This document shows positions 6,146-24,928 of a stretch of 50,143 bases of DNA, piece by piece (the first letter of the stretch is position 1; every line of letters begins with the position of its first letter). The position numbers were made by a program, and so were the translations under genes. The notes under the pieces are model-generated. The model ran no database searches. It was not told the DNA's origin and saw nothing but the letters and a program-made list of their open reading frames with translations. This DNA comes from Escherichia phage Perceval, in sequence record OV696612. The stretch is one strand, 5' to 3'.

Positions 6146-7171
6146 ATGTCTGTATATACAACTGCAGAATTACTGGCATCGACCCAGCATCACTTTAAGT
6201 TCGATCCGCTGTTTCTGCGCCTGTTTTTCCGTGAAACCTATCCTTTCACCACGGAAAAAGTCTATCTCTCACAAATTCCGGGACTGGTAAACATGGCGCT
6301 GTACGTTTCGCCGATTGTTTCCGGTGAGGTTATCCGATCCCGTGGCGGCTCCACCTCTGAATTTACGCCGGGTTATGTCAAACCCAAGCATGAGGTGAAT
6401 CCGCAGATGACCCTGCGTCGCCTGCCGGATGAAGATCCGCAGAACCTGGCTGACCCGGCTTACCGTCGTCGCCGTATTATTCGGCAGAATATGCTGGATG
6501 AAAATCTGGCGATTGCCCAGGTCGAAGAGATGCAGGCAGTTTCTGCCGTGCTTAAGGGCAAATATACCATGACCGGTGAAGCCTTCGATCCGGTTGAGGT
6601 GGATATGGGCCGCAGTGAGGCGAATAACATCACGCAGTCCGGCGGCACGGAGTGGAGCAAGCGTGACAAGTCCACGTATGACCCGACCGACGATATCGAA
6701 GCCTACGCGCTGAACGCCAGCGGTGTGGTGAATATCATCGTGTTTGATCCGAAAGGCTGGGCGCTGTTCCGTTCCTTCAAAGCCGTCAAGGAGAAGCTGG
6801 ATACCCGTCGCGGCTCTCATTCCGAGCTGGAGACAGCGGTAAAAGACCTGGGCAAAGCGGTGTCTTATAAGGGAATGTATGGCGATGTGGCCATCGTCGT
6901 GTATTCCGGACAGTACGTGGAAAACGGCGTCAAAAAGAACTTCCTGCCGGACAACACGATGGTGCTGGGGAACACTCAGGCACGCGGTCTGCGCACCTAT
7001 GGTTGCATTCAGGATGCGGACGCACAGCGCGAAGGCATTAACGCCTCTGCCCGTTACCCGAAAAACTGGGTGACCACCGGCGACCCGGCGCGTGAGTTCA
7101 CCATGATTCAGTCAGCACCGCTGATGCTGCTGGCTGACCCTGATGAGTTCGTGTCTGTACAACTGGCGTAA
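6146..7171 (+). CDS. E: major capsid protein E
   Basis: 341 aa, MSVYTTAELLASTQHHFKFDPLFLRLFFRETYPF..., matches lambda gpE. Confidence 0.96.
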   Translation: MSVYTTAELLASTQHHFKFDPLFLRLFFRETYPFTTEKVYLSQIPGLVNMALYVSPIVSGEVIRSRGGSTSEFTPGYVKPKHEVNPQMTLRRLPDEDPQNLADPAYRRRRIIRQNMLDENLAIAQVEEMQAVSAVLKGKYTMTGEAFDPVEVDMGRSEANNITQSGGTEWSKRDKSTYDPTDDIEAYALNASGVVNIIVFDPKGWALFRSFKAVKEKLDTRRGSHSELETAVKDLGKAVSYKGMYGDVAIVVYSGQYVENGVKKNFLPDNTMVLGNTQARGLRTYGCIQDADAQREGINASARYPKNWVTTGDPAREFTMIQSAPLMLLADPDEFVSVQLA

Positions 7172-7212
7172 TCATGGCCCTTCGGGGCCATTGTTTCTCT
7201 GTGGAGGAGTCC

Positions 7213-7608
7213 ATGACGAAAGATGAACTGATTGCCCGTCTCCGCTCGCTGGGTGAACAACTGAACCGTGATATCAGCCTGACGGGGACGAAAGAAGAAC
7301 TGGCGCTCCGTGTGGCAGAACTGGAAGAAGAGCTTGATGACACGGGCGACACTGCCGGTCAGGATATCCCTCTCAGCCCGGAAAATGTGCTGACCGGACA
7401 TGAAAATGAGGTTGTATCAGCGCAGCCGGATACCGTGACTGATACGGCTGATCTGGTCACGGTTGTGGCACTGGTGACGCTGCATACTGATGCACTTCAC
7501 GCCACGCGGGATGAGGCTGTGGCATTTGTGCTGCCGGGAACGGCGTTCCGTGTCTCTGCCGGTGTGGCAGCTGAAATGACAGAGCGCGGCCTGGCCAGAA
7601 TACAATAA
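7213..7608 (+). CDS. FI: DNA packaging protein FI
   Basis: ATG at 7213 after GGAGGAG; MTKDELIARLRSLGEQLNRDISLTGTKEELALRVAELEEEL... matches lambda FI; the ORF-track start at 7174 is upstream. Confidence 0.9.
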   Translation: MTKDELIARLRSLGEQLNRDISLTGTKEELALRVAELEEELDDTGDTAGQDIPLSPENVLTGHENEVVSAQPDTVTDTADLVTVVALVTLHTDALHATRDEAVAFVLPGTAFRVSAGVAAEMTERGLARIQ

Positions 7609-15512: not shown

Positions 15513-18500
15513 ATGGGTAAAGGCAGCAGTAAGGGGCATACCCCGCGCGAAGCGAAGGACAACCTGAAATCATCCCAGATGCTGAGCGTGATAGACGCCA
15601 TCAGTGAAGGGCCGATTGAAGGTCCGGTGGACGGATTAAAAAGTGTGCTGCTGAACAGTACGCCAGTGCTGGACAGTGAGGGGAATACCAATATCTCCGG
15701 TGTCACGGTGGTTTTCCGGGCAGGTGAGCAGGAGCAGACACCGCCGGAGGGATTTGAATCCTCCGGCTCCGAGACGGTGCTGGGTACGGAAGTGAAGTAC
15801 GACACGCCGATTACCCGGACCATCACGTCTGCAAACATCGACCGTCTGCGCTTTACCTTCGGTGTGCAGGCACTGGTGGAAACCACCTCAAAGGGGGACC
15901 GGAATCCGTCGGAAGTCCGCCTGCTGGTTCAGATACAGCGTAACGGTGGCTGGGTGACGGAAAAAGACATCACCATTAAAGGCAAAACCACCTCACAGTA
16001 TCTGGCCTCGGTGGTGGTGGGTAACCTGCCGCCGCGCCCGTTCAATATCCGGATGCGCAGGATGACGCCGGACAGCACCACAGACCAGCTGCAGAACAAA
16101 ACGCTCTGGTCGTCATACACCGAAATCATCGATGTGAAACAGTGCTACCCGAACACGGCACTGGTCGGCGTACAGGTGGATTCGGAGCAGTTCGGCAGCC
16201 AGCAGGTGAGCCGTAATTATCATCTGCGCGGGCGTATTCTGCAGGTGCCGTCGAACTATAACCCGCAGACGCGGCAATACAGCGGTATCTGGGACGGAAC
16301 GTTTAAGCCAGCATACAGCAATAACATGGCCTGGTGTCTGTGGGATATGCTGACCCATCCACGCTACGGCATGGGGAAACGTCTTGGTGCGGCGGATGTG
16401 GACAAATGGGCGCTGTATGTCATCGGCCAGTACTGCGACCAGTCAGTGCCGGACGGCTTTGGCGGCACGGAGCCGCGCATCACCTGTAATGCGTACCTGA
16501 CCACACAGCGCAAGGCGTGGGATGTGCTCAGTGATTTCTGCTCGGCGATGCGCTGTATGCCGGTATGGAACGGGCAGACGCTGACGTTCGTGCAGGACCG
16601 ACCGTCGGATAAGGTGTGGACCTATAACCGCAGTAATGTGGTGATGCCGGATGATGGCGCGCCGTTCCGCTACAGTTTCAGCGCCCTGAAAGACCGCCAT
16701 AATGCCGTTGAGGTGAACTGGATTGACCCGAACAACGGCTGGGAGACGGCGACAGAGCTTGTGGAGGATACGCAGGCCATTGCCCGTTACGGTCGTAACG
16801 TCACGAAGATGGATGCTTTTGGCTGTACCAGCCGGGGGCAGGCACACCGCGCCGGGCTGTGGCTGATTAAAACAGAACTGCTGGAAACGCAGACCGTGGA
16901 CTTCTGCGTGGGCGCAGAAGGGCTTCGCCATGTACCGGGCGATGTCATTGAAATCTGTGATGATGACTATGCCGGTATCAGCATCGGCGGGCGCGTGCTG
17001 GCGGTAAACAGCCAGACCCGGACGCTGACGCTCGACCGTGAAATCACGCTGCCATCCTCCGGTACCACGCTGATAAGCCTGGTTGACGGAAGTGGCAATC
17101 CGATCAGCGTGGAGGTTCAGTCCGTCACCGACGGCGTGAAGGTGAAAGTGAGCCGTGTTCCTGACGGTGTTGCTGAATACAGCGTGTGGGGGCTGAAGCT
17201 GCCGACGCTGCGCCAGCGCCTGTTCCGCTGCGTGAGTATCCGTGAGAACGACGACGGCACGTATGCCATCACCGCCGTGCAGCATGTACCGGAAAAAGAG
17301 GCCATCGTGGATAACGGGGCGTACTTTGACGGCGACCAGAGCGGCACGGTGAATGGTGTCACGCCGCCAGCGGTGCAGCACCTGACCGCCGAAGTCACCG
17401 CAGACAGCGGGGAATATCAGGTGCTGGCGCGCTGGGACACGCCGAAGGTGGTGAAGGGCGTGAGCTTCCTGCTCCGTCTGACCGTAACAGCGGATGACGG
17501 CAGTGAGCGGCTGGTCAGCACGGCCCGGACGACGGAAACCACATACCGCTTCAGGCAACTGGCGCTGGGGAACTACAGGCTGACAGTCCGGGCGGTAAAT
17601 GCGTGGGGGCAGCAGGGCGATCCGGCGTCGGTATCGTTCCGGATTGCCGCACCGGCAGCACCGTCGAGGATTGAGCTGACGCCGGGCTATTTTCAGATAA
17701 CCGCCACGCCGCATCTTGCCGTTTATGACCCGACGGTACAGTTTGAGTTCTGGTTCTCGGAAAAGCGGATTACCGATATCAGGCAGGTTGAAACCACAGC
17801 CCGCTATCTTGGTACGGCGCTGTACTGGATAGCCGCCAGTATCAATATCAAACCGGGCCATGATTATTACTTTTATATCCGCAGTGTGAACACCGTTGGC
17901 AAATCGGCATTCGTGGAGGCCGTCGGTCGGGCGAGCGATGATGCGGAAGGTTACCTGGATTTTTTCAAAGGCAAGATAACCGAATCCCATCTCGGCAAGG
18001 AGCTGCTGGAAAAAGTCGAGCTGACGGAGGATAACGCCAGCAGACTGGAGGAGTTTTCGAAAGAGTGGAAGGACGCCAACGATAAGTGGAATGCCATGTG
18101 GGGCGTCAAAATTGAGCAGACCAAAGACGGCAAACATTATGTCGCGGGTATTGGCCTCAGCATGGAGGACACGGAGGAAGGCAAACTGAGTCAGTTTCTG
18201 GTTGCCGCTAACCGTATCGCATTTATTGACCCGGCAAACGGGAATGAAACGCCGATGTTTGTGGCGCAGGGCAATCAGATATTCATGAACGACGTGTTCC
18301 TGAAGCGCCTGACGGCCCCCACCATTACCAGTGGTGGCAGTCCTCCGGTATTTTCCCTGACATCAGACGGAAAGCTGACCGCTAAAAATGCGGATATCAG
18401 TGGCAGTGTGAATGCGAACGCCGGGACGCTCAACAATGTCACGGTAAATGAAAACTGTACGATTAAGGGCATGCTGGAGGCGACTCAGGTCAGAGGTGAC

Positions 18501-18926
18501 TTCGTTAAAGCTGTATCCAAATCATTTCCGAAACAGGCTGGTACGTGGGGTAACACGGAAACACCAAACGGGACGGTTACAGTCACCATCAGCGATGATC
18601 ATAACTTTGACCGTCAAATCATTATTCCGCCCATTATCTTTAACGGAATAGCGTATAGCGATCCGGGAAGTGGTAATAACCCGGGAGGTACAAGATACAC
18701 GGGTTATGGTTTTGAAGTTCGCAAAAACGGTGTATTAATCGCATCCAGAGAAACTAAAGGGGCCATTCCCGGTAGCTACAGTGCGGTTATTGATATGCCG
18801 AGTGGCAGGGGAAGCGTCACTCTGGAGTTTAAGGTTTTCCATAAAGGCAATCAGTGGGCAGGTAATATCACCGACTGTACGGTGATTGTGACCAAAAAAG
18901 CCGCTTCCGGCATCAGTATTCGTTGA
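15513..18926 (+). CDS. J: central tail fibre / host specificity protein J
   Basis: 1137 aa; N-terminal about 980 aa match lambda gpJ; fibronectin-III-like repeats; C-terminal about 150 aa appear divergent from lambda J as recalled. Confidence 0.93.
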
Positions 18927-18946
18927 AATTGTTATAACCCATATAA

Positions 18947-18972
18947 GGGCACCAGAAATGGTGCCTTTTTTA
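18947..18972 (+). terminator. rho-independent terminator after J
   Basis: GGGCACC-AGAAAT-GGTGCC followed by TTTTTT. Confidence 0.7.
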
Positions 18973-18995: not shown

Positions 18996-19595
18996 ATGCG
19001 TAAACTTTATGCCGCCATTTTGTCCGCAGCCATTTGTCTGGCCGTATCCGGTGCGCCTGCATGGGCATCTGAACATCAGTCCACGCTGAGCGCGGGGTAT
19101 CTTCATGCCTCGACGAACGTTCCCGGCAGCGATGATCTTAACGGGATTAACGTGAAATACCGTTATGAGTTTACGGACACACTGGGGCTGGTGACGTCAT
19201 TCAGCTATGCAGGAGACAAGAATCGCCAGCTTACCCGTTACAGCGATACCCGCTGGCATGAAGATTCCGTGCGTAACCGCTGGTTCAGCGTGATGGTGGG
19301 GCCGTCTGTGCGCGTGAATGAATGGTTCAGCGCGTATGCGATGGCGGGTATGGCTTACAGCCGTGTGTCGACTTTCTCCGGGGATTATCTCCGCGTAACT
19401 GACAACAAGGGGAAAACGCACGACGTGCTGACCGGAAGTGATGACGGTCGCCACAGCAACACGTCTCTGGCGTGGGGAGCTGGCGTGCAGTTTAACCCGA
19501 CCGAATCCGTGGCCATTGATATTGCTTATGAAGGCTCCGGCAGTGGCGACTGGCGCACTGACGGTTTCATCGTGGGTGTCGGTTATAAGTTCTGA
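18996..19595 (+). CDS. lom: outer membrane protein Lom (Ail/OmpX family)
   Basis: 199 aa with signal peptide [24 protein letters not shown] and beta-barrel sequence ending GYKF; matches lambda Lom. Confidence 0.9.
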
Positions 19596-19621: not shown

Positions 19622-19649
19622 AGCCCGCCGGTTCAGGCGGGCTTTTTTG
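19622..19649 (+). terminator. rho-independent terminator after lom
   Basis: AGCCCGCC-GGTTCA-GGCGGGCT followed by TTTTTT. Confidence 0.75.
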
Positions 19650-19659
19650 TGGGGTGAAT

Positions 19660-21720
19660 ATGGCAGTAAAGATTTCAGGTGTACTGAAAGACGGCACAGG
19701 AAAACCGGTACAGAACTGCACAATCCAGCTGAAAGCAAAACGTAACAGCACCACAGTTGTGGTGAACACGGTGGCCTCAGAAAATCCGGATGAAGCCGGA
19801 CGTTACAGCATGGATGTTGAGTATGGCCAGTACAGCGTCGCCCTGCTGGTTGAAGGTTTTCCGCCTTCACATGCCGGGACCATCACCGTGTATGAGGATT
19901 CTAAGCCGGGGACATTGAATGATTTTCTGGGCGCTGCAACAGAAGATGATGTTTGTCCGGAGGCACTGTATCGTTTTGAAAAGATGGTGGAAGAGGCGGC
20001 ACGCAACGCTGAAGCCGCCTCTCAGAGCGCAGCGGCAGCAAAGAAATCAGAAACAGCAGCGGCATCGTCCAGGAACGCGGCGAAAACATCAGAGACGAAT
20101 GCAGGTAACAGCGCGAAAGCGGCAGCTTCTTCAAAAACAGCCGCACAAAACGCAGCAACAGCGGCAGAACGTTCAGAGACAAATGCCCGTGCGTCAGAAG
20201 AAGCCTCCGCAGACAGTGAAGAGGCTTCCCGCCGTAATGCAGAGTCAGCCGCTGAAAATGCCGGAGTCGCCACCACAAAAGCGCGGGAGGCCGCAGCAGA
20301 CGCAACAAAGGCCGGGCAGAAAAAGGATGAGGCTCTGTCGGCAGCGACACGAGCTGAAAAGGCGGCAGACCGCGCAGAAGCCGCAGCGGAAGTGACTGCA
20401 GAGCCCTGTGCGAATATAGTGCCGCCGCTGCCTGATGTGTGGATACCGTTTAACGATTCACTGGATATGATTGCGGGTTTTTCTCCGGGCTATAAAAAAA
20501 TAGCTATTGGTGACGATGTGGTTCAGGTCGCCAGTGATAAACAGGTTAATTTCAGTCGCGCATCAACGGCAACATATATCAACAAATCTGGCGAACTGAA
20601 AACGGCGGAAATTAATGAGCCGCGATTTGAGTGTGATGGCCTGCTTATTGAGGGACAAAGAACGAACTACATGCTCAATTCGGAAAGTCCAGCCAGCTGG
20701 GGGAAGTCATCAAACATGGATGTGCCCGAAACCGGGACGGATAGTTTTGGTTTTACTTATGGAAAGTTTGTCTGCAACGATTCTCTGGTTGGGCAAACTT
20801 CGGCTATTAATATGGCATCAATTGCTGCAACAAAGTCAGTTGATGTCTCAGGCGATAACAAGTACGTGACAACCTCATGCCGTTTTAAAACAGAACGACA
20901 GGTAAGGTTACGTATACGGTTTGATAAGTATGATGGTAGTGCAACAACTTTTCTTGGCGATGCGTACATTGATACGCAAACGCTTGAAATTAGTATGACA
21001 GGTGGTGCTGCCGGCAGAATTACGGCACGAGTCAGGAAGGATAAGACCACGGGCTGGATTTTTGCAGAGGCAACGATTCAGGCAATTGATGGTGAGTTAA
21101 AAATAGGCTCTCAGATACAGTATTCTCCTGGGCAGGGTGGGGCAACAGTATCTGGTGACTATATTTATCTTGCCACCCCACAAGTAGAGAATGGGCCGTG
21201 TGTATCATCATTTATTATTTCAGGAGGCAGCGCAACGACAAGAGCCAGTGATTTGGTTAGTATCCCCACCAGAAATAATCTTTATAAGTTACCATTTACT
21301 TTTTTACTTGAGATTCATAAAAACTGGGATATTGCACCAAACGCCGCACCCCGCGTGTGGGATATAGCAGCAGCCAATACCGGGCAATCAGCAATTGCAG
21401 CAATCAACAGAGGTAGTGGTAAGTTATATATGAGTCTGTCAAACCCTTCAGGCTCGTATGTTAATAGCGCAGCGACAGATGTATTTGCAGAGAAAACCAC
21501 ATTTGGATGTATTGCAAAAGCTGATGGTCACTTTCATGTGGTGACAAATGGTAAAGCGGTTAATGAAGTTTATTGTGAATATAATGGCGTGACCGCTGAT
21601 AAAAATATCCGATTTGGAGGGCAGACGAATACTGGAGAACGACATCTGTTTGGCCATATTCGCAATTTCCGCATATGGCATAAAGAATTAAATGACAGGC
21701 AATTAAAAGAGGTCGTATGA
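19660..21720 (+). CDS. stf: side tail fibre protein (lambda Stf-like N-terminus, Ala-rich repeat stalk, non-lambda C-terminal domain)
   Basis: ATG at 19660; MAVKISGVLKDGTGKPVQNCTIQLKA... matches lambda Stf N-terminus; residues about 115-245 are an Ala/Ser/Glu-rich repeat; C-terminal about 430 aa are not recognisable as lambda Stf. Confidence 0.85.
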   Translation: MAVKISGVLKDGTGKPVQNCTIQLKAKRNSTTVVVNTVASENPDEAGRYSMDVEYGQYSVALLVEGFPPSHAGTITVYEDSKPGTLNDFLGAATEDDVCPEALYRFEKMVEEAARNAEAASQSAAAAKKSETAAASSRNAAKTSETNAGNSAKAAASSKTAAQNAATAAERSETNARASEEASADSEEASRRNAESAAENAGVATTKAREAAADATKAGQKKDEALSAATRAEKAADRAEAAAEVTAEPCANIVPPLPDVWIPFNDSLDMIAGFSPGYKKIAIGDDVVQVASDKQVNFSRASTATYINKSGELKTAEINEPRFECDGLLIEGQRTNYMLNSESPASWGKSSNMDVPETGTDSFGFTYGKFVCNDSLVGQTSAINMASIAATKSVDVSGDNKYVTTSCRFKTERQVRLRIRFDKYDGSATTFLGDAYIDTQTLEISMTGGAAGRITARVRKDKTTGWIFAEATIQAIDGELKIGSQIQYSPGQGGATVSGDYIYLATPQVENGPCVSSFIISGGSATTRASDLVSIPTRNNLYKLPFTFLLEIHKNWDIAPNAAPRVWDIAAANTGQSAIAAINRGSGKLYMSLSNPSGSYVNSAATDVFAEKTTFGCIAKADGHFHVVTNGKAVNEVYCEYNGVTADKNIRFGGQTNTGERHLFGHIRNFRIWHKELNDRQLKEVV

Positions 21721-21995
21721 AAGATTTAACTTTGAAGTTTCATGACAAACTGCAGTTTAAGGCCTTCCTGTCATCTCTTGGCTGGGCGGAAGATGAAGAC
21801 CTCCAGAATAAACTGTTAGTTGATGAAATTGGTTTCACCTACACAGAAACAGGGGTAACAGAAGAGGGAGAACCTGTCTGTATCCGGAATGATGGTTATT
21901 TTGTCAACATTCGCATTCTTGATGACTTGTTTGATGTTTCTGTATTCTCTGATTATGTCGTGGAGCTGGAAACACCGCTTCGGGAATGGAGCTGA
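21717..21995 (+). CDS. hypothetical protein downstream of stf (92 aa, acidic)
   Basis: ORF translationally coupled to the stf stop (ATGA overlap); no similarity to Tfa-type tail fibre assembly proteins. Confidence 0.5.
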   Translation: MKDLTLKFHDKLQFKAFLSSLGWAEDEDLQNKLLVDEIGFTYTETGVTEEGEPVCIRNDGYFVNIRILDDLFDVSVFSDYVVELETPLREWS

Positions 21996-22007
21996 AAGGA
22001 GGAAATA

Positions 22008-22301
22008 ATGGATATAAGCCCCTTACTTCATGCACTTTGTGCTGTGGCTGCGCAGATACTGGTTGGTCTTTTTACCGGAAACTGGGCTTACGGAGCGATA
22101 GCCGGTTGTACGTTCTTCATTGCGCGTGAACATACCCAGGCAGAATATCGCTGGATTGAAATGTTCGGGCATGGCAAGCGAATGAATATGCCGTGGTGGG
22201 GCGGTTTTGATCCGCGAGCTTGGGATGTGGCAAGCCTGATGGATTTTGCTGTGCCGGTGGTGGCGTGTCTGCTGGTCTGGCTGTTGGTTAATCGTGGGTG
22301 A
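22008..22301 (+). CDS. hypothetical small membrane protein (97 aa, two predicted TM helices)
   Basis: Strong RBS AAGGAGG 6 nt upstream of the ATG; hydrophobic segments LHALCAVAAQILVGLFTGNWAYGAIAG and FAVPVVACLLVWLLV. Confidence 0.55.
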   Translation: MDISPLLHALCAVAAQILVGLFTGNWAYGAIAGCTFFIAREHTQAEYRWIEMFGHGKRMNMPWWGGFDPRAWDVASLMDFAVPVVACLLVWLLVNRG

Positions 22302-22392: not shown

Positions 22393-23250
22393 CTAATTGG
22401 GTGATAACAGATCCTGTGTATGGGAGTTTCCCTTTTTGCGTGCGTTGATGCTGGTAACGGCAAACGTCATGATGAACAAAACCGCGAATAAGACGACAAT
22501 CGTCGGAGCTGGTGCGCTGTCGATAAAAAAGGACAACCAGACACCAGTCATTGACACTATTACCGATATGCCAGTCGCCAGTAGGAGCGCAATATGAAAG
22601 CGTTGTGTCAGGAGTACCGCAATGGCGCCAGGCGCAATGAGCAGAGAAATGGAGAGAATGATACCTACCGCTTTCAGCGTCGCCACAATGGTCAGAGAGA
22701 CCATGCACAGCAGCCCATAATGCAGCCATCTCGTATGCAAACCGCTTACCTGCGCCTGTTGATAATCAAAGCTGAACAGCAAAAAATCCCGCCATTTTAC
22801 GCTAATAACAAGTGTAACCAGCCCGGCAATAATCATCGTCTGGATTATATCGCCGATGGTTATCCCGAGCATGTCGCCGAAAAGAATATGGTCAAGATGT
22901 ACGTCTGGTTTGACTGCAATATACAAGATCAGACCTGCGGCAAACATGCCAGAAAAAACAATCCCCATCACTGTATCTTGCTTGATTCGGCTGTTGTCTT
23001 TCAGGTATCCCGTCGCCACCGCGCAGAATACTCCGGCGACGAATGCCCCTGTAGCCAAAGGTAACCCCAGAATCCAGGCAAGCACGATGCCAGGAAAAAC
23101 CGCATGACTCATCGCGTCACCCATCAGTGCCCAACCTTTCAGGACCAGAAAGACCGACAGCAGCGCACAGGGTATGGAAACTACCAGTGAAATCAGCAGT
23201 GCGTGACTCATAAAGGTGAACTGCAGTGGCTCCAGTAATAATGCCATCAT
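22393..23250 (-). CDS. sitD: Mn/Fe ABC transporter permease SitD
   Basis: 285 aa polytopic membrane protein of the ABC-3 permease family; last gene of a four-gene operon with overlapping stop/start junctions. Confidence 0.85.
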   Translation of the reverse strand: MMALLLEPLQFTFMSHALLISLVVSIPCALLSVFLVLKGWALMGDAMSHAVFPGIVLAWILGLPLATGAFVAGVFCAVATGYLKDNSRIKQDTVMGIVFSGMFAAGLILYIAVKPDVHLDHILFGDMLGITIGDIIQTMIIAGLVTLVISVKWRDFLLFSFDYQQAQVSGLHTRWLHYGLLCMVSLTIVATLKAVGIILSISLLIAPGAIAVLLTQRFHIALLLATGISVIVSMTGVWLSFFIDSAPAPTIVVLFAVLFIMTFAVTSINARKKGNSHTQDLLSPN

Positions 23251-24104
23251 GAGCGATCCTCCAGCGCCTTATGCGCACGCCGACGATTTGCCAAAAGCCC
23301 ATGGGTGGGCGCAAAGACAAATGCTAAAAGAAACAGCAGTGTCTGCGCCACCACGATGATTCCACCTGTCGCGCCGTCCAGAAAGTAACTGACCCACGCG
23401 CCGAGGAAACTGGTTACACTGCCAATAGTTACAGCAATCATGAGCAGGCGGGGAAAACGATCGGTTAACAACCATGCTGTTGCACCGGGAGTCACCACCA
23501 GACAGATCACCAGAAAGGCACCAACCGTTTGCAGCGCCGCAACGGTCGAAACCGACAGCAGGGTGAAGAAGAGGAGTTTTAATCTGCCCGGATGCAATCC
23601 AATAGCACGGGCGTGATTCTCGTCGAAAAAGGTCACCATAAGATCTTTCCATTTGAAAAAAAGCACGATGATCGAGAGAATGCCAATGATAGTGAGTTGC
23701 AGGATATCCGCCGGATCGATTGCCAGAATATTGCCCAGGACGATGGTCTGAATGTTCACAGATGTCGGGTTCAATGACACCATAAACAGCCCCAGGCCAA
23801 AAAAGGACGAGAAGATCAGACCGATGATGGCATCTTCTTTTAAGCGGGTGCGTTGGTTAAGAAACAGCATGCTGCCCGCAGCCAGTCCGCCGGAAAAGAA
23901 GGCTCCCAGAGAAAACGGAAGCCCCAGCATATATGCCCCCGCAACACCCGGGACAATAGAGTGCGACAACGCATCGCCAATCAGCGACCAGCCTTTTAGC
24001 ATCAGATAGCATGACAGGAAAGCGCAGAGACCGCCGACCATCGCCGAGACCCACATCGCATTGAGCATATATTCATAGCTGAAGGGTTCCAGTAGCACGT
24101 TCAT
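23247..24104 (-). CDS. sitC: Mn/Fe ABC transporter permease SitC
   Basis: 285 aa ABC-3 family permease; start overlaps sitB stop. Confidence 0.85.
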
Positions 24105-24928
24105 CTTTCTTCCCTCTGCACCGCTGACGGTCGATGAGCCACAAAAGGGCGTTCATCGTCAGTAATAATGCTTTCTTCCGAGCCGTTAAGTGTGACATGG
24201 CGCAGTACGCCGCTAAAAGCCAGCTCTAGGTTCTCGGCTGTAAAAGTGGTGTCTGTCGGCCCGCTTGCTAGGACGGTGCCTTTGACCATGACCGTATAAT
24301 CGCAAAATGTCGTGACGGATCCGAGATTGTGTGTTGAGACAAGCATCGTTTTGCCTTCCGCGCGTAACTCCCTCAACAGGCTGATGATTTTGGCTTCGGT
24401 TTTCACATCAACGCCAGTAAAAGGTTCATCCAGCAGGATCACATCACCCTGCTGTGCAATCGCTCTCGCCAGAAAGACGCGTTTCTTTTGTCCACCGGAA
24501 AGCTCGCCGATTTGTCGATGGCGAAAATTCACCATATCGACACGTTCCAGCGCATCGGTGACAATTTGACGATCCCTCTTTTTGGCGATACGCAACATAC
24601 CCATATGCCCATAGCGGCCCATCATCACCACATCTTCCACCAGTACAGGAAATGACCAGTCAACATCTTCTGACTGAGGGACGTAGGCAACCAGGTTTTT
24701 CTGTAACGCCTGTCGCGTGGGAATACCCAGAACAGATATCTTTCCGCTGGTCAGACGCACAAATCCCATAATCGCTTTAAACAACGTCGATTTTCCGGAA
24801 CCGTTTACCCCAACCAGAGCGGCAATAGATCCACTTGGTACTGTGAAGGATGCATCGCGCAGTGCTGTGTGCCCGTTACGCCAGGTGACAGTAACATCAT
24901 TAACGACAATGCCTGCAGATTGCATCAT
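24101..24928 (-). CDS. sitB: Mn/Fe ABC transporter ATP-binding protein SitB
   Basis: 275 aa; Walker [13 protein letters not shown] signature LSGGQKKR, Walker [12 protein letters not shown]. Confidence 0.9.

Follow-up and report, generated by a model that had tools for sequence, protein, structure and literature searches.

Gene Organization of the Side Tail Fibre Locus

The side tail fibre locus of the Escherichia phage Perceval was analysed within a stretch of 50,143 nucleotides (sequence record OV696612; referred to as the window), in which the fibre gene stf is directly followed by two small open reading frames (ORFs), orf92 and orf97. According to an ORF scan, the three genes belong to a co-directional run on the plus strand, in which they are preceded by J (15513-18926) and lom (18996-19595; Ail_Lom match in Pfam, E = 1e-119), while sitD, sitC, sitB and sitA follow orf97 on the minus strand (22393-25842). 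The features of the locus are the following:

19622-19643, plus strand: predicted terminator-like GC-rich hairpin (8-bp stem) followed by a T-run, between lom and stf (consensus scan and sequence)
19660-21720, plus strand: stf, intact side tail fibre gene, 686 aa (ORF list; PF08400, E = 6e-68; phrog_1419 "tail protein", E = 0; 98.6% nucleotide identity to phage 21 CPT_21_22 "side tail fiber")
19660-19932, plus strand: Stf residues 1-91, collar (StfN) domain, predicted to dock the fibre on the tail tip (PDB 9e7m chain Ta; PF08400)
19933-20415, plus strand: Stf residues 92-252, linker and Ala-rich heptad coiled-coil stalk, the latter at ~102-252 (composition; autocorrelation)
20416-21294, plus strand: Stf residues 253-545, D1, a domain of the RcGTA head-spike-fibre type (NF048003; PDB 6tb9_F3)
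21295-21717, plus strand: Stf residues 546-686, D2, a predicted LamG/concanavalin A (ConA)-like lectin domain (PF13385; ConA-like PDB matches)
21717-21995, plus strand: orf92, acidic cytoplasmic protein of 92 aa (ORF list; phrog_1361/phrog_18574)
22008-22301, plus strand: orf97, inner-membrane protein of 97 aa, closing the late operon ahead of the sit cargo (PHROG 1443)

The stf gene starts with the ATG at 19660, with an in-frame GTG at 19654 as a further possible start, and stops at 21718-21720, so that the protein ends in ...HIRNFRIWHKELNDRQLKEVV. The stop codon of stf and the start codon of orf92 form a four-base overlap (GAGGTCGT-ATGA), and a GAGG is located six nucleotides upstream of the orf92 ATG. 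The junction between orf92 and orf97 reads TGA-AAGGAGGAAATA-ATG, and orf97 is preceded by an AAGGAGG ribosome binding site. The orf92 product is acidic, with a computed pI of 4.17 and a net charge of -12, and the orf97 product contains two strongly hydrophobic segments (residues ~3-24 and ~74-95). Both small ORFs are under purifying selection, with dN/dS values of 0.27-0.34 for orf92 and 0.13-0.24 for orf97, indicating that they are real genes. An initial annotation, made from the sequence alone, had described three ORFs of 686, 92 and 97 aa, the second acidic and the third with two transmembrane segments and a strong ribosome binding site, and each of these statements was confirmed by the ORF scan, the computed pI and charge, the hydrophobicity and the AAGGAGG motif.

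The hairpin between lom and stf coincides with a site at which the annotators of phage 21 placed a terminator, and a further terminator-like hairpin is located 3' of J (18945-18968). Expression of stf, orf92 and orf97 would require either antiterminated late transcription that reads through the hairpin at 19622-19643 or a promoter of their own.

A Cassette of Phage 21 and of B2 Escherichia coli Prophages

The three genes make up the side tail fibre cassette of a lambdoid prophage of the phage 21 type, namely the sitABCD-carrying "Perceval" type of B2 Escherichia coli. The 3.5 kb that surround the cassette are found with 100% identity in E. coli LF82, NRG857c, NC101 and other strains, and at least 80% of this query is covered in 61 complete genomes. 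In LF82 the flanks contain a complete lambda-like late operon, with an icd fragment at the prophage end, and icd is known as the attachment site of phage 21. The name Perceval has been given to the LF82 prophage that carries sitABCD (PMC9928086). Compared with the classical phage 21 (OL657228.1), the segment stf-orf92-orf97-sitDCBA is 98.6% identical at the DNA level, with the match beginning at stf, and the phage 21 record annotates the genes as CPT_21_22 "side tail fiber", CPT_21_23 "hypothetical protein" and CPT_21_24 "putative membrane protein," followed by sitDCBA. The genome paper of phage 21 does not take the function of the cassette beyond annotation (PMC9119081), and published evolution studies using this phage concern J only. 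The module had initially been regarded as unusual, an impression that has to be given up, since the same side tail fibre cassette is annotated in phage 21 and in thousands of E. coli prophages, and its head is widespread on the lateral fibres of lytic coliphages.

The 686-aa form of Stf constitutes the dominant cluster, with 2232 members. RefSeq nevertheless labels the LF82 copy (LF82_RS06080; LF82 locus L001, 20761-22465; only 568 codons) as a pseudogene that is "incomplete; missing C-terminus," which is contradicted by the uninterrupted ORF of 686 codons, by the equal length of the gene in infectious phage 21 and by the size of the 686-aa cluster. In phage 4A7 (L005, 6029-8445) an insertion sequence with three transposase genes breaks stf at codon ~642, within the D2 domain, and the stf match is cut off in the same way in the phages named D2, 1W and 3W. 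Since all of these were isolated as plaque-forming phages, an intact head is dispensable for growth on their laboratory hosts. As for the cargo, the iron/manganese transporter genes sitDCBA are located directly after the late operon, placed as in phage 21, and are also found in the free lambda-like phages ev017, 1H12 and PhiR63_2. A contig of 2.8 kb from a Collinsella metagenome-assembled genome (L098; JAGZNZ010000051.1) contains stf, orf92 and orf97 of the E. coli type and is probably a binning contaminant.

The Lambda-Like Collar and the Stalk

The N-terminal region of Stf is closely related to the side tail fibre of lambda, as had been proposed initially. Residues 1-131 match PF08400 (phage_tail_N) with E = 6.3e-68 and 227 bits (cut-off 26.6), and residues 1-94 align with chain Ta of PDB 9e7m, which contains the solved Stf collar of the Ur-lambda tail (E = 6e-51). 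In lambda, StfN comprises residues 1-91 and contacts gpV and gpM, and it is followed by a linker and then by a trimeric coiled coil (PMC12617516). BLASTP gives 75% identity to lambda Stf over residues 1-158, such that the identity is near-complete up to residue ~117 and is followed by low-complexity, compositional similarity. The stalk (residues 111-252) consists of 37% Ala, 13% Glu and 11% Ser, in agreement with the Ala/Ser/Glu-rich composition described for it before. The repeat array that had been proposed along with this composition was rejected, since Tandem Repeats Finder does not detect a tandem repeat in the DNA. Instead, the autocorrelation of the stalk peaks at lags 7, 14 and 21, and this heptad periodicity indicates a coiled coil like the proximal Stf rod of lambda.

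An Exchangeable Head of Two Domains

The exchangeable head of Stf begins with the sequence PLPDVWIP at residue 253, and the homology to unrelated fibres starts exactly there. For example, a siphovirus-type prophage encodes an otherwise unrelated fibre of 704 aa that carries the head with 54% identity from exactly this residue. At the other end, the head family retains the C-terminal motif GHIRNxRIWHxxLTDxQ up to the last residues, and an exhaustive HMMER search (E <= 1e-3) gave 2861 representatives of this family at 50% identity. A profile of this family was built from 47 diverse members.

The first domain, D1, is homologous to the fibre protein Rcc01080 of the gene transfer agent RcGTA. Residues 329-529 match NCBIfam NF048003 (GTA_spike_fiber) over model positions 1-181/182 with 56.8 bits (cut-off 36), and Rcc01080 (PDB 6tb9_F3) is matched with E = 6e-10 by the single sequence and with E = 1.8e-44 by the family profile. 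The same profile also matches the baseplate wedge proteins E217 gp45 (8env, E = 1e-19) and Pa193 gp46, as well as the Dit protein gp17 of the Shigella phage Sf11 (E = 4e-19). The second domain, D2, belongs to a family in which 26 of the 47 diverse members match PF13385 (Laminin_G_3; best E = 1.9e-11), with the D2 of an Aeromonas relative clearing the Pfam threshold at 28.9 bits. Furthermore, the family profile leads to ConA-like folds in the PDB, namely 4qvs (1.2e-5), C-reactive protein (1.3e-3), the Hc fragment of botulinum neurotoxin (BoNT; 3e-3) and a sialidase carbohydrate-binding module (CBM; 8.5e-3). Within the head, variation is greatest in D2, which has ~40% identity between alleles compared with 46-90% for D1, as would fit a specificity determinant.

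The initial annotation had held that the C-terminal ~430 residues are unrelated to lambda Stf and that no Tfa-type gene follows stf, and the alignments that would speak against these two statements had been named beforehand. Neither alignment was obtained. Stf does not match lambda orf-314, which corresponds to the distal half of the lambda fibre (best BLASTP E = 5.6), orf92 does not align with lambda Tfa, and a Tfa-type (Caudo_TAP) chaperone is not encoded downstream of stf. A C-terminal Peptidase_S74 (PF13884) chaperone was likewise not found in Stf by Pfam.

Distribution of the Head and Its Proposed Ligand

The D1-D2 head was found by tblastn in 217 phage records, which include lateral fibres of T5-like phages, of Drexlerviridae (T1-like), of Dhillonvirus and of rV5-like phages, and it is also present on fibres of Aeromonas prophages. 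Heads of this type are fused to N-termini of the PF08400, PF12571 (P2-type) and PF03406 families. A case similar to the Collinsella contig is that of phage records labelled "Campylobacter" and "Listeria," in which fibre sequence of rV5-like phages or coliphages is found.

As a single subunit, the RcGTA fibre attaches to the polysaccharide capsule and is required for adsorption (PMC7296036, PMC5026251, PMC10218006). According to the BASEL study, the lateral fibres of T5-like phages bind O-antigen specifically but are not essential, and such a role was considered likely, although undemonstrated, for Drexlerviridae. Capsule binding by RcGTA, the ConA-like D2 and the occurrence of the head in phage groups whose lateral fibres are described as binding O-antigen together make a surface polysaccharide (O-antigen, capsule, lipopolysaccharide (LPS) core or enterobacterial common antigen (ECA)) the most likely ligand of the head, to which it would bind reversibly and thereby accelerate adsorption ahead of J. 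Moreover, D1-type domains are single-copy peripheral modules in the RcGTA fibre, in E217 gp45 and in the Dit appendage of Sf11, which suggests that the head probably consists of three independent lobes that would not need a Tfa-type chaperone.

orf92 Is a Conserved Partner of the Fibre

The orf92 product matches phrog_1361 (E = 3.2e-42) and phrog_18574 (E = 1.7e-6), both of which are PHROGs without an assigned function, and its Aeromonas counterpart matches the same two in reversed order. Searches with the orf92 sequence gave no match in Pfam, NCBIfam, PADLOC or the PDB, nor did a superfamily profile yield anything meaningful against the PDB and Pfam. An AlphaFold2 model of the protein (pLDDT, the predicted local distance difference test, of 90.9) shows a small alpha/beta domain. 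With this model, Foldseek reached a best E of 0.039 against the PDB, and only uncharacterised phage proteins of 80-100 aa were found in BFVD.

The genomic association of orf92 with the fibre is nearly without exception in the loci sampled. Among relatives of orf92, a D1-type fibre ends directly upstream in 98 of 98 loci, and the same holds for all 80 loci collected with wider seeds (to ~32% identity, environmental contigs). Conversely, an orf92-like gene is located downstream in 72 of the 73 viral loci found with the fibre profile, the exception being L183, which is the most distant. The start of the partner gene overlaps the stop codon of the fibre gene in 135 of 153 distinct fibre/partner pairs. 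Two myovirus-type prophages of Aeromonas, whose fibres are 29-30% identical to Stf, encode a colinear orf92 homologue of 33% identity, and a gene of the orf92 family is also present in the lytic phages KarlBarth, AKFV33 and JeffSchatz. A scan of contigs with peptide patterns yielded six loci; as the patterns are specific for Escherichia and Aeromonas, the taxonomic breadth of the cassette is under-sampled by it.

Distance matrices of orf92 correlate with those of D1 and D2 at 0.71 and 0.65, respectively, and among close pairs the correlation with D2 is higher than that with D1, following physical linkage. The two correlations, computed to test for a specific co-evolution of orf92 with D1 or D2, are thus similar. 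Among E. coli alleles, the four modules are combined freely.

The neighbourhood of orf92 varies in two further respects. A second fibre gene (~340 aa) follows orf92 in several loci (L003 of phage 2G7b, 5925-6962; L095, L097 and L098; L007-L010, ~6341-7369). In L007-L010 its product ends in a Peptidase_S74 domain, and in the lambdoid loci orf92 and orf97 flank the gene. Some relatives may therefore bear side fibres of two kinds or a branched side fibre. In three loci for which a domain scan was made, the neighbouring second fibre carries its own intramolecular Peptidase_S74 chaperone, which the D1-D2 fibre lacks. In the Aeromonas loci L099 (6218-6496) and L100 (6176-6412) a small ORF that matches phrog_6098 is inserted between the fibre gene and the orf92-like gene. 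Its product contains a CC(Q/K)QHD.DYG motif, which by eye resembles the catalytic motif of phospholipase A2, and a C-terminal hydrophobic helix, and it has no Pfam match.

Judged from its position and conservation, orf92 would encode an accessory that is dedicated to the fibre, most likely an assembly factor, and it takes the place that Tfa has in lambda.

A Model for the Fibre and Its Partner, and Competing Explanations

The explanation that we favour, with some reservation, is that Stf is a mosaic fibre of the phage 21 type with a glycan-binding head and that orf92 provides its assembly factor. The lambda collar domain (residues 1-91) would plug the fibre into the tail tip, and the heptad coiled coil (~102-252) would form a short trimeric rod, from which each chain would emerge to end, from residue 253, in the exchangeable head, where two globular domains rich in beta structure, D1 and D2, are combined. 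The three heads of a fibre would fold as independent lobes, and an intertwined trimeric tip that calls for a Tfa-type chaperone would be absent. By reversibly tethering the virion to surface polysaccharide, the head would allow the central fibre J to find its porin thereafter, as proposed for the lateral fibres with this head in T5-like and T1-like phages. The orf92 product would be translated by coupling from the stf stop codon and would act in trans as a folding or assembly factor, possibly being retained on the fibre.

Several observations weigh against this explanation. The fold of orf92 offers no functional hint, and its alleles do not co-vary with the head, since 99%-identical orf92 copies are paired with heads of 40-46% identity. 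Such a mismatch is unexpected for a highly specific chaperone, although orf92 may bind a conserved surface. Furthermore, rcc01080 of RcGTA is followed by capsule genes rather than by an orf92-like gene (PMC5026251), and the distant viral relative L183 also lacks one, indicating that D1 can function without orf92. For the head, D2 of Stf itself scores just below the gathering score of PF13385 (E = 3e-5; 24.6-25.8 bits compared with 27.6). An AlphaFold2 model of head residues 255-686, made from an alignment of 18 sequences, was discarded as unreliable (pLDDT 50.8; predicted template modelling score 0.39), so that the picture of a two-domain head is based on sequence and profile homology. In PDB 6tb9 the experimentally resolved residues of Rcc01080 are 2-10 only. 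Finally, the literature that could be searched contained no experiment on this Stf or on the orf92 product.

An unlikely, yet the best surviving, alternative is that orf92 is a structural component of the virion, either as a distal adaptor that caps the D1-D2 head or as the docking site for a second fibre in a branched lateral fibre. This would explain why a second fibre gene directly follows orf92 in a number of phages, namely gp24 of 2G7b (346 aa), the gene for a 342-aa Peptidase_S74 protein in L007-L010, orf135 of AKFV33, gp30/31 of KarlBarth and bas55_0028 of JeffSchatz. Branched lateral fibres made of two proteins are documented in T5-like phages (PMC4728585), and the pairing of one orf92 allele with very different heads would suit a generic adaptor. 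However, Perceval and phage 21 do not encode a second fibre gene, and their orf92 is nevertheless intact and under purifying selection. In addition, virion proteomics listing a member of the orf92 family was not found, and the orf92 fold resembles no known adhesin or adaptor.

We regard it as rather improbable that the D1-D2 head recognises an outer-membrane protein rather than a glycan. Lambda Stf does bind OmpC (PMC12617516), phage 21 can grow on the O-antigen-lacking strain K-12 (PMC9119081), and lectin-like folds can bind proteins as well. On the other hand, LPS core and ECA are still available on K-12, the nearest characterised relative, the RcGTA fibre, binds capsule, D2 probably falls into a superfamily of carbohydrate-binding domains, and the same head is found on lateral fibres of phage groups that are described as O-antigen binders.

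Even less probable is an enzymatic C-terminal region, such as a depolymerase, glucanase or deacetylase that acts on the surface polysaccharide, despite the fact that PF13385 is placed in the "ConA-like lectin/glucanase" superfamily and that many phage fibres are enzymes. Neither a catalytic family nor a beta-helix or pectate-lyase domain was detected in Stf by Pfam, NCBIfam and PHROGs, and the PDB matches of D2 are binding modules (pentraxin, BoNT Hc, sialidase CBM and an S-layer-domain protein). Weak "Depolymerase" matches in the PDB (E = 0.08 with the single sequence; 5e-7 with the profile) map to residues 97-167 in the stalk/N-terminal region and not to the head. The distal domain had been suggested at the outset to be either glycan-binding or enzymatic, and it is the former that fits the homology of D1 to the capsule-binding RcGTA fibre and of D2 to ConA/LamG domains.

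That stf is a decaying pseudogene followed by unrelated morons, which the RefSeq label, the dispensability of Stf in lambda PaPa and the viability of phages 4A7, D2, 1W and 3W with an insertion sequence in stf might suggest, is hardly tenable in view of the intact reading frame and the dominance of the 686-aa form, of a C-terminal motif conserved to its last residues and of orf92 synteny and coupling conserved in the unrelated phage groups sampled.

orf97 Is a Separate Element

The second small ORF behaves differently from orf92, although both had originally been grouped together as accessory factors of the fibre. This view would suit orf92, which is a conserved and coupled partner and may functionally replace Tfa, but not orf97, which is not specific to this fibre. 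The orf97 product matches phrog_1443 (E = 2e-58), and its family consists of 577 clusters (at least 57-60% identity) in Enterobacterales, Aeromonas and Comamonas. An invariant polar loop, AREHTQAEYRWI..G.R..MPWWGGFD, is located between the two hydrophobic segments, with R40-E41-H42 and W64-G65-G66-F67-D68 among its invariant residues. No match was found in Pfam or the PDB, either by sequence or by family profile, and for all three proteins, Stf, orf92 and orf97, the PADLOC models of anti-phage defence gave no match at E <= 0.1. The gene is missing from the non-lambdoid prophage loci L007-L010, which have the fibre/orf92 pair, and an orf97 homologue was not seen in the three lytic-phage loci of KarlBarth, AKFV33 and JeffSchatz. 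Conversely, orf97 relatives occur after a gpJ-like gene in Comamonas, between two tailspike genes in Salmonella, after a P2-type S74 fibre gene in Leclercia, and in DNA without phage genes nearby (L101, L265, L267, L102 and L266). A role as a fibre-specific accessory was rejected on the basis of these contexts. Instead, orf97 tends to be a separate element at the 3' end of many loci that encode receptor-binding proteins.

Implications

Taken by itself, the Perceval cassette is of limited interest, being the known and annotated, though unstudied, fibre cassette that phage 21 shares with a very common prophage of B2 E. coli. The wider interest lies neither in the cassette nor in the head, but in orf92 as a conserved and uncharacterised fibre partner: the lateral-fibre head family used by lambda-like, T1-like, T5-like and rV5-like phages is a two-gene cassette with a small partner that has not been characterised. 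We tentatively raise the possibility, on which we remain undecided and lean to caution, that the orf92 family (PHROG 1361/18574) represents an unrecognised and widespread class of tail-fibre accessories that has its own fold, is unrelated to Tfa, gp38, gp57A and S74, and is obligatorily paired with heads of the GTA head-spike-fibre type across siphoviruses, myoviruses and prophages of Escherichia, Salmonella and Aeromonas. If this were true, knowledge of orf92 would be needed for transplanting these glycan-binding heads onto engineered lambda or T5 particles. When the host range is engineered by swapping the Stf tip, the segment from PLPDVWIP to the stop codon should probably be moved together with the downstream gene. 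For annotation pipelines, the locus provides a case in which RefSeq labels an intact stf as a truncated pseudogene and its partner as "hypothetical."

Comparison With Known Systems

The closest known system is the cassette of phage 21 (OL657228.1), which has the same gene order, the same protein lengths (686, 92 and 97 aa) and the same sit cargo, with point differences only. Perceval differs in that it is an integrated prophage in the chromosome of B2 E. coli and in that lom precedes stf, whereas phage 21 has no lom between J and stf.

With Stf and Tfa of lambda (Ur-lambda), the Perceval fibre shares the collar domain, the attachment site, a trimeric Ala-rich coiled-coil rod and the position of the gene after J and lom, as well as the presence of a coupled downstream gene. 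However, the rod of ~150 residues is about half as long as the proximal rod of lambda (~290 residues), and the hinge, the distal rod and the gp37-like tip of lambda Stf are replaced by the D1-D2 head. The downstream partner of 92 aa is unrelated to Tfa, which consists of 194 aa. The receptors would differ as well, as lambda Stf uses OmpC (PMC12617516) and the Perceval head probably a glycan.

The RcGTA fibre Rcc01080 (GhsB; NF048003; PDB 6tb9/6tba chain F3) contains a domain homologous to D1 and likewise serves as a flexible, peripheral adsorption device, in its case for binding the capsule. Rcc01080 is mounted as a single subunit on the capsid pentons via an N-terminal Leu-Gly repeat, whereas Stf of Perceval would be placed on the tail as a trimer. 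A mounting on the capsid through a head-spike base protein does not apply to Stf, whose N-terminus is the lambda tail collar and whose gene is located in the tail operon after J and lom, and the relation to NF048003 is therefore one of the domain and not of the organelle. In addition, Rcc01080 has no LamG domain in the aligned region, and its gene is followed by capsule genes instead of an orf92-type gene (PMC5026251).

Finally, the same D1-D2 head, with 37-71% identity, is found on fibres of lytic coliphages, namely orf137 of AKFV33 (T5-like), gp28 of KarlBarth (Dhillonvirus), bas55_0026 of JeffSchatz (rV5-like) and fibres of Drexlerviridae. LtfA/LtfB of DT57C were considered as further fibres with this head and were rejected, being of the S74 type. 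The N-terminal anchor and the rod of these lytic coliphage fibres are different from those of Stf, the small gene is often succeeded by one for a second fibre, and an orf97 homologue is absent from the three cases examined. What they have in common with the Perceval cassette, in addition to the head, is that a gene of the orf92 family follows the fibre gene, with a start codon that overlaps or abuts its end.

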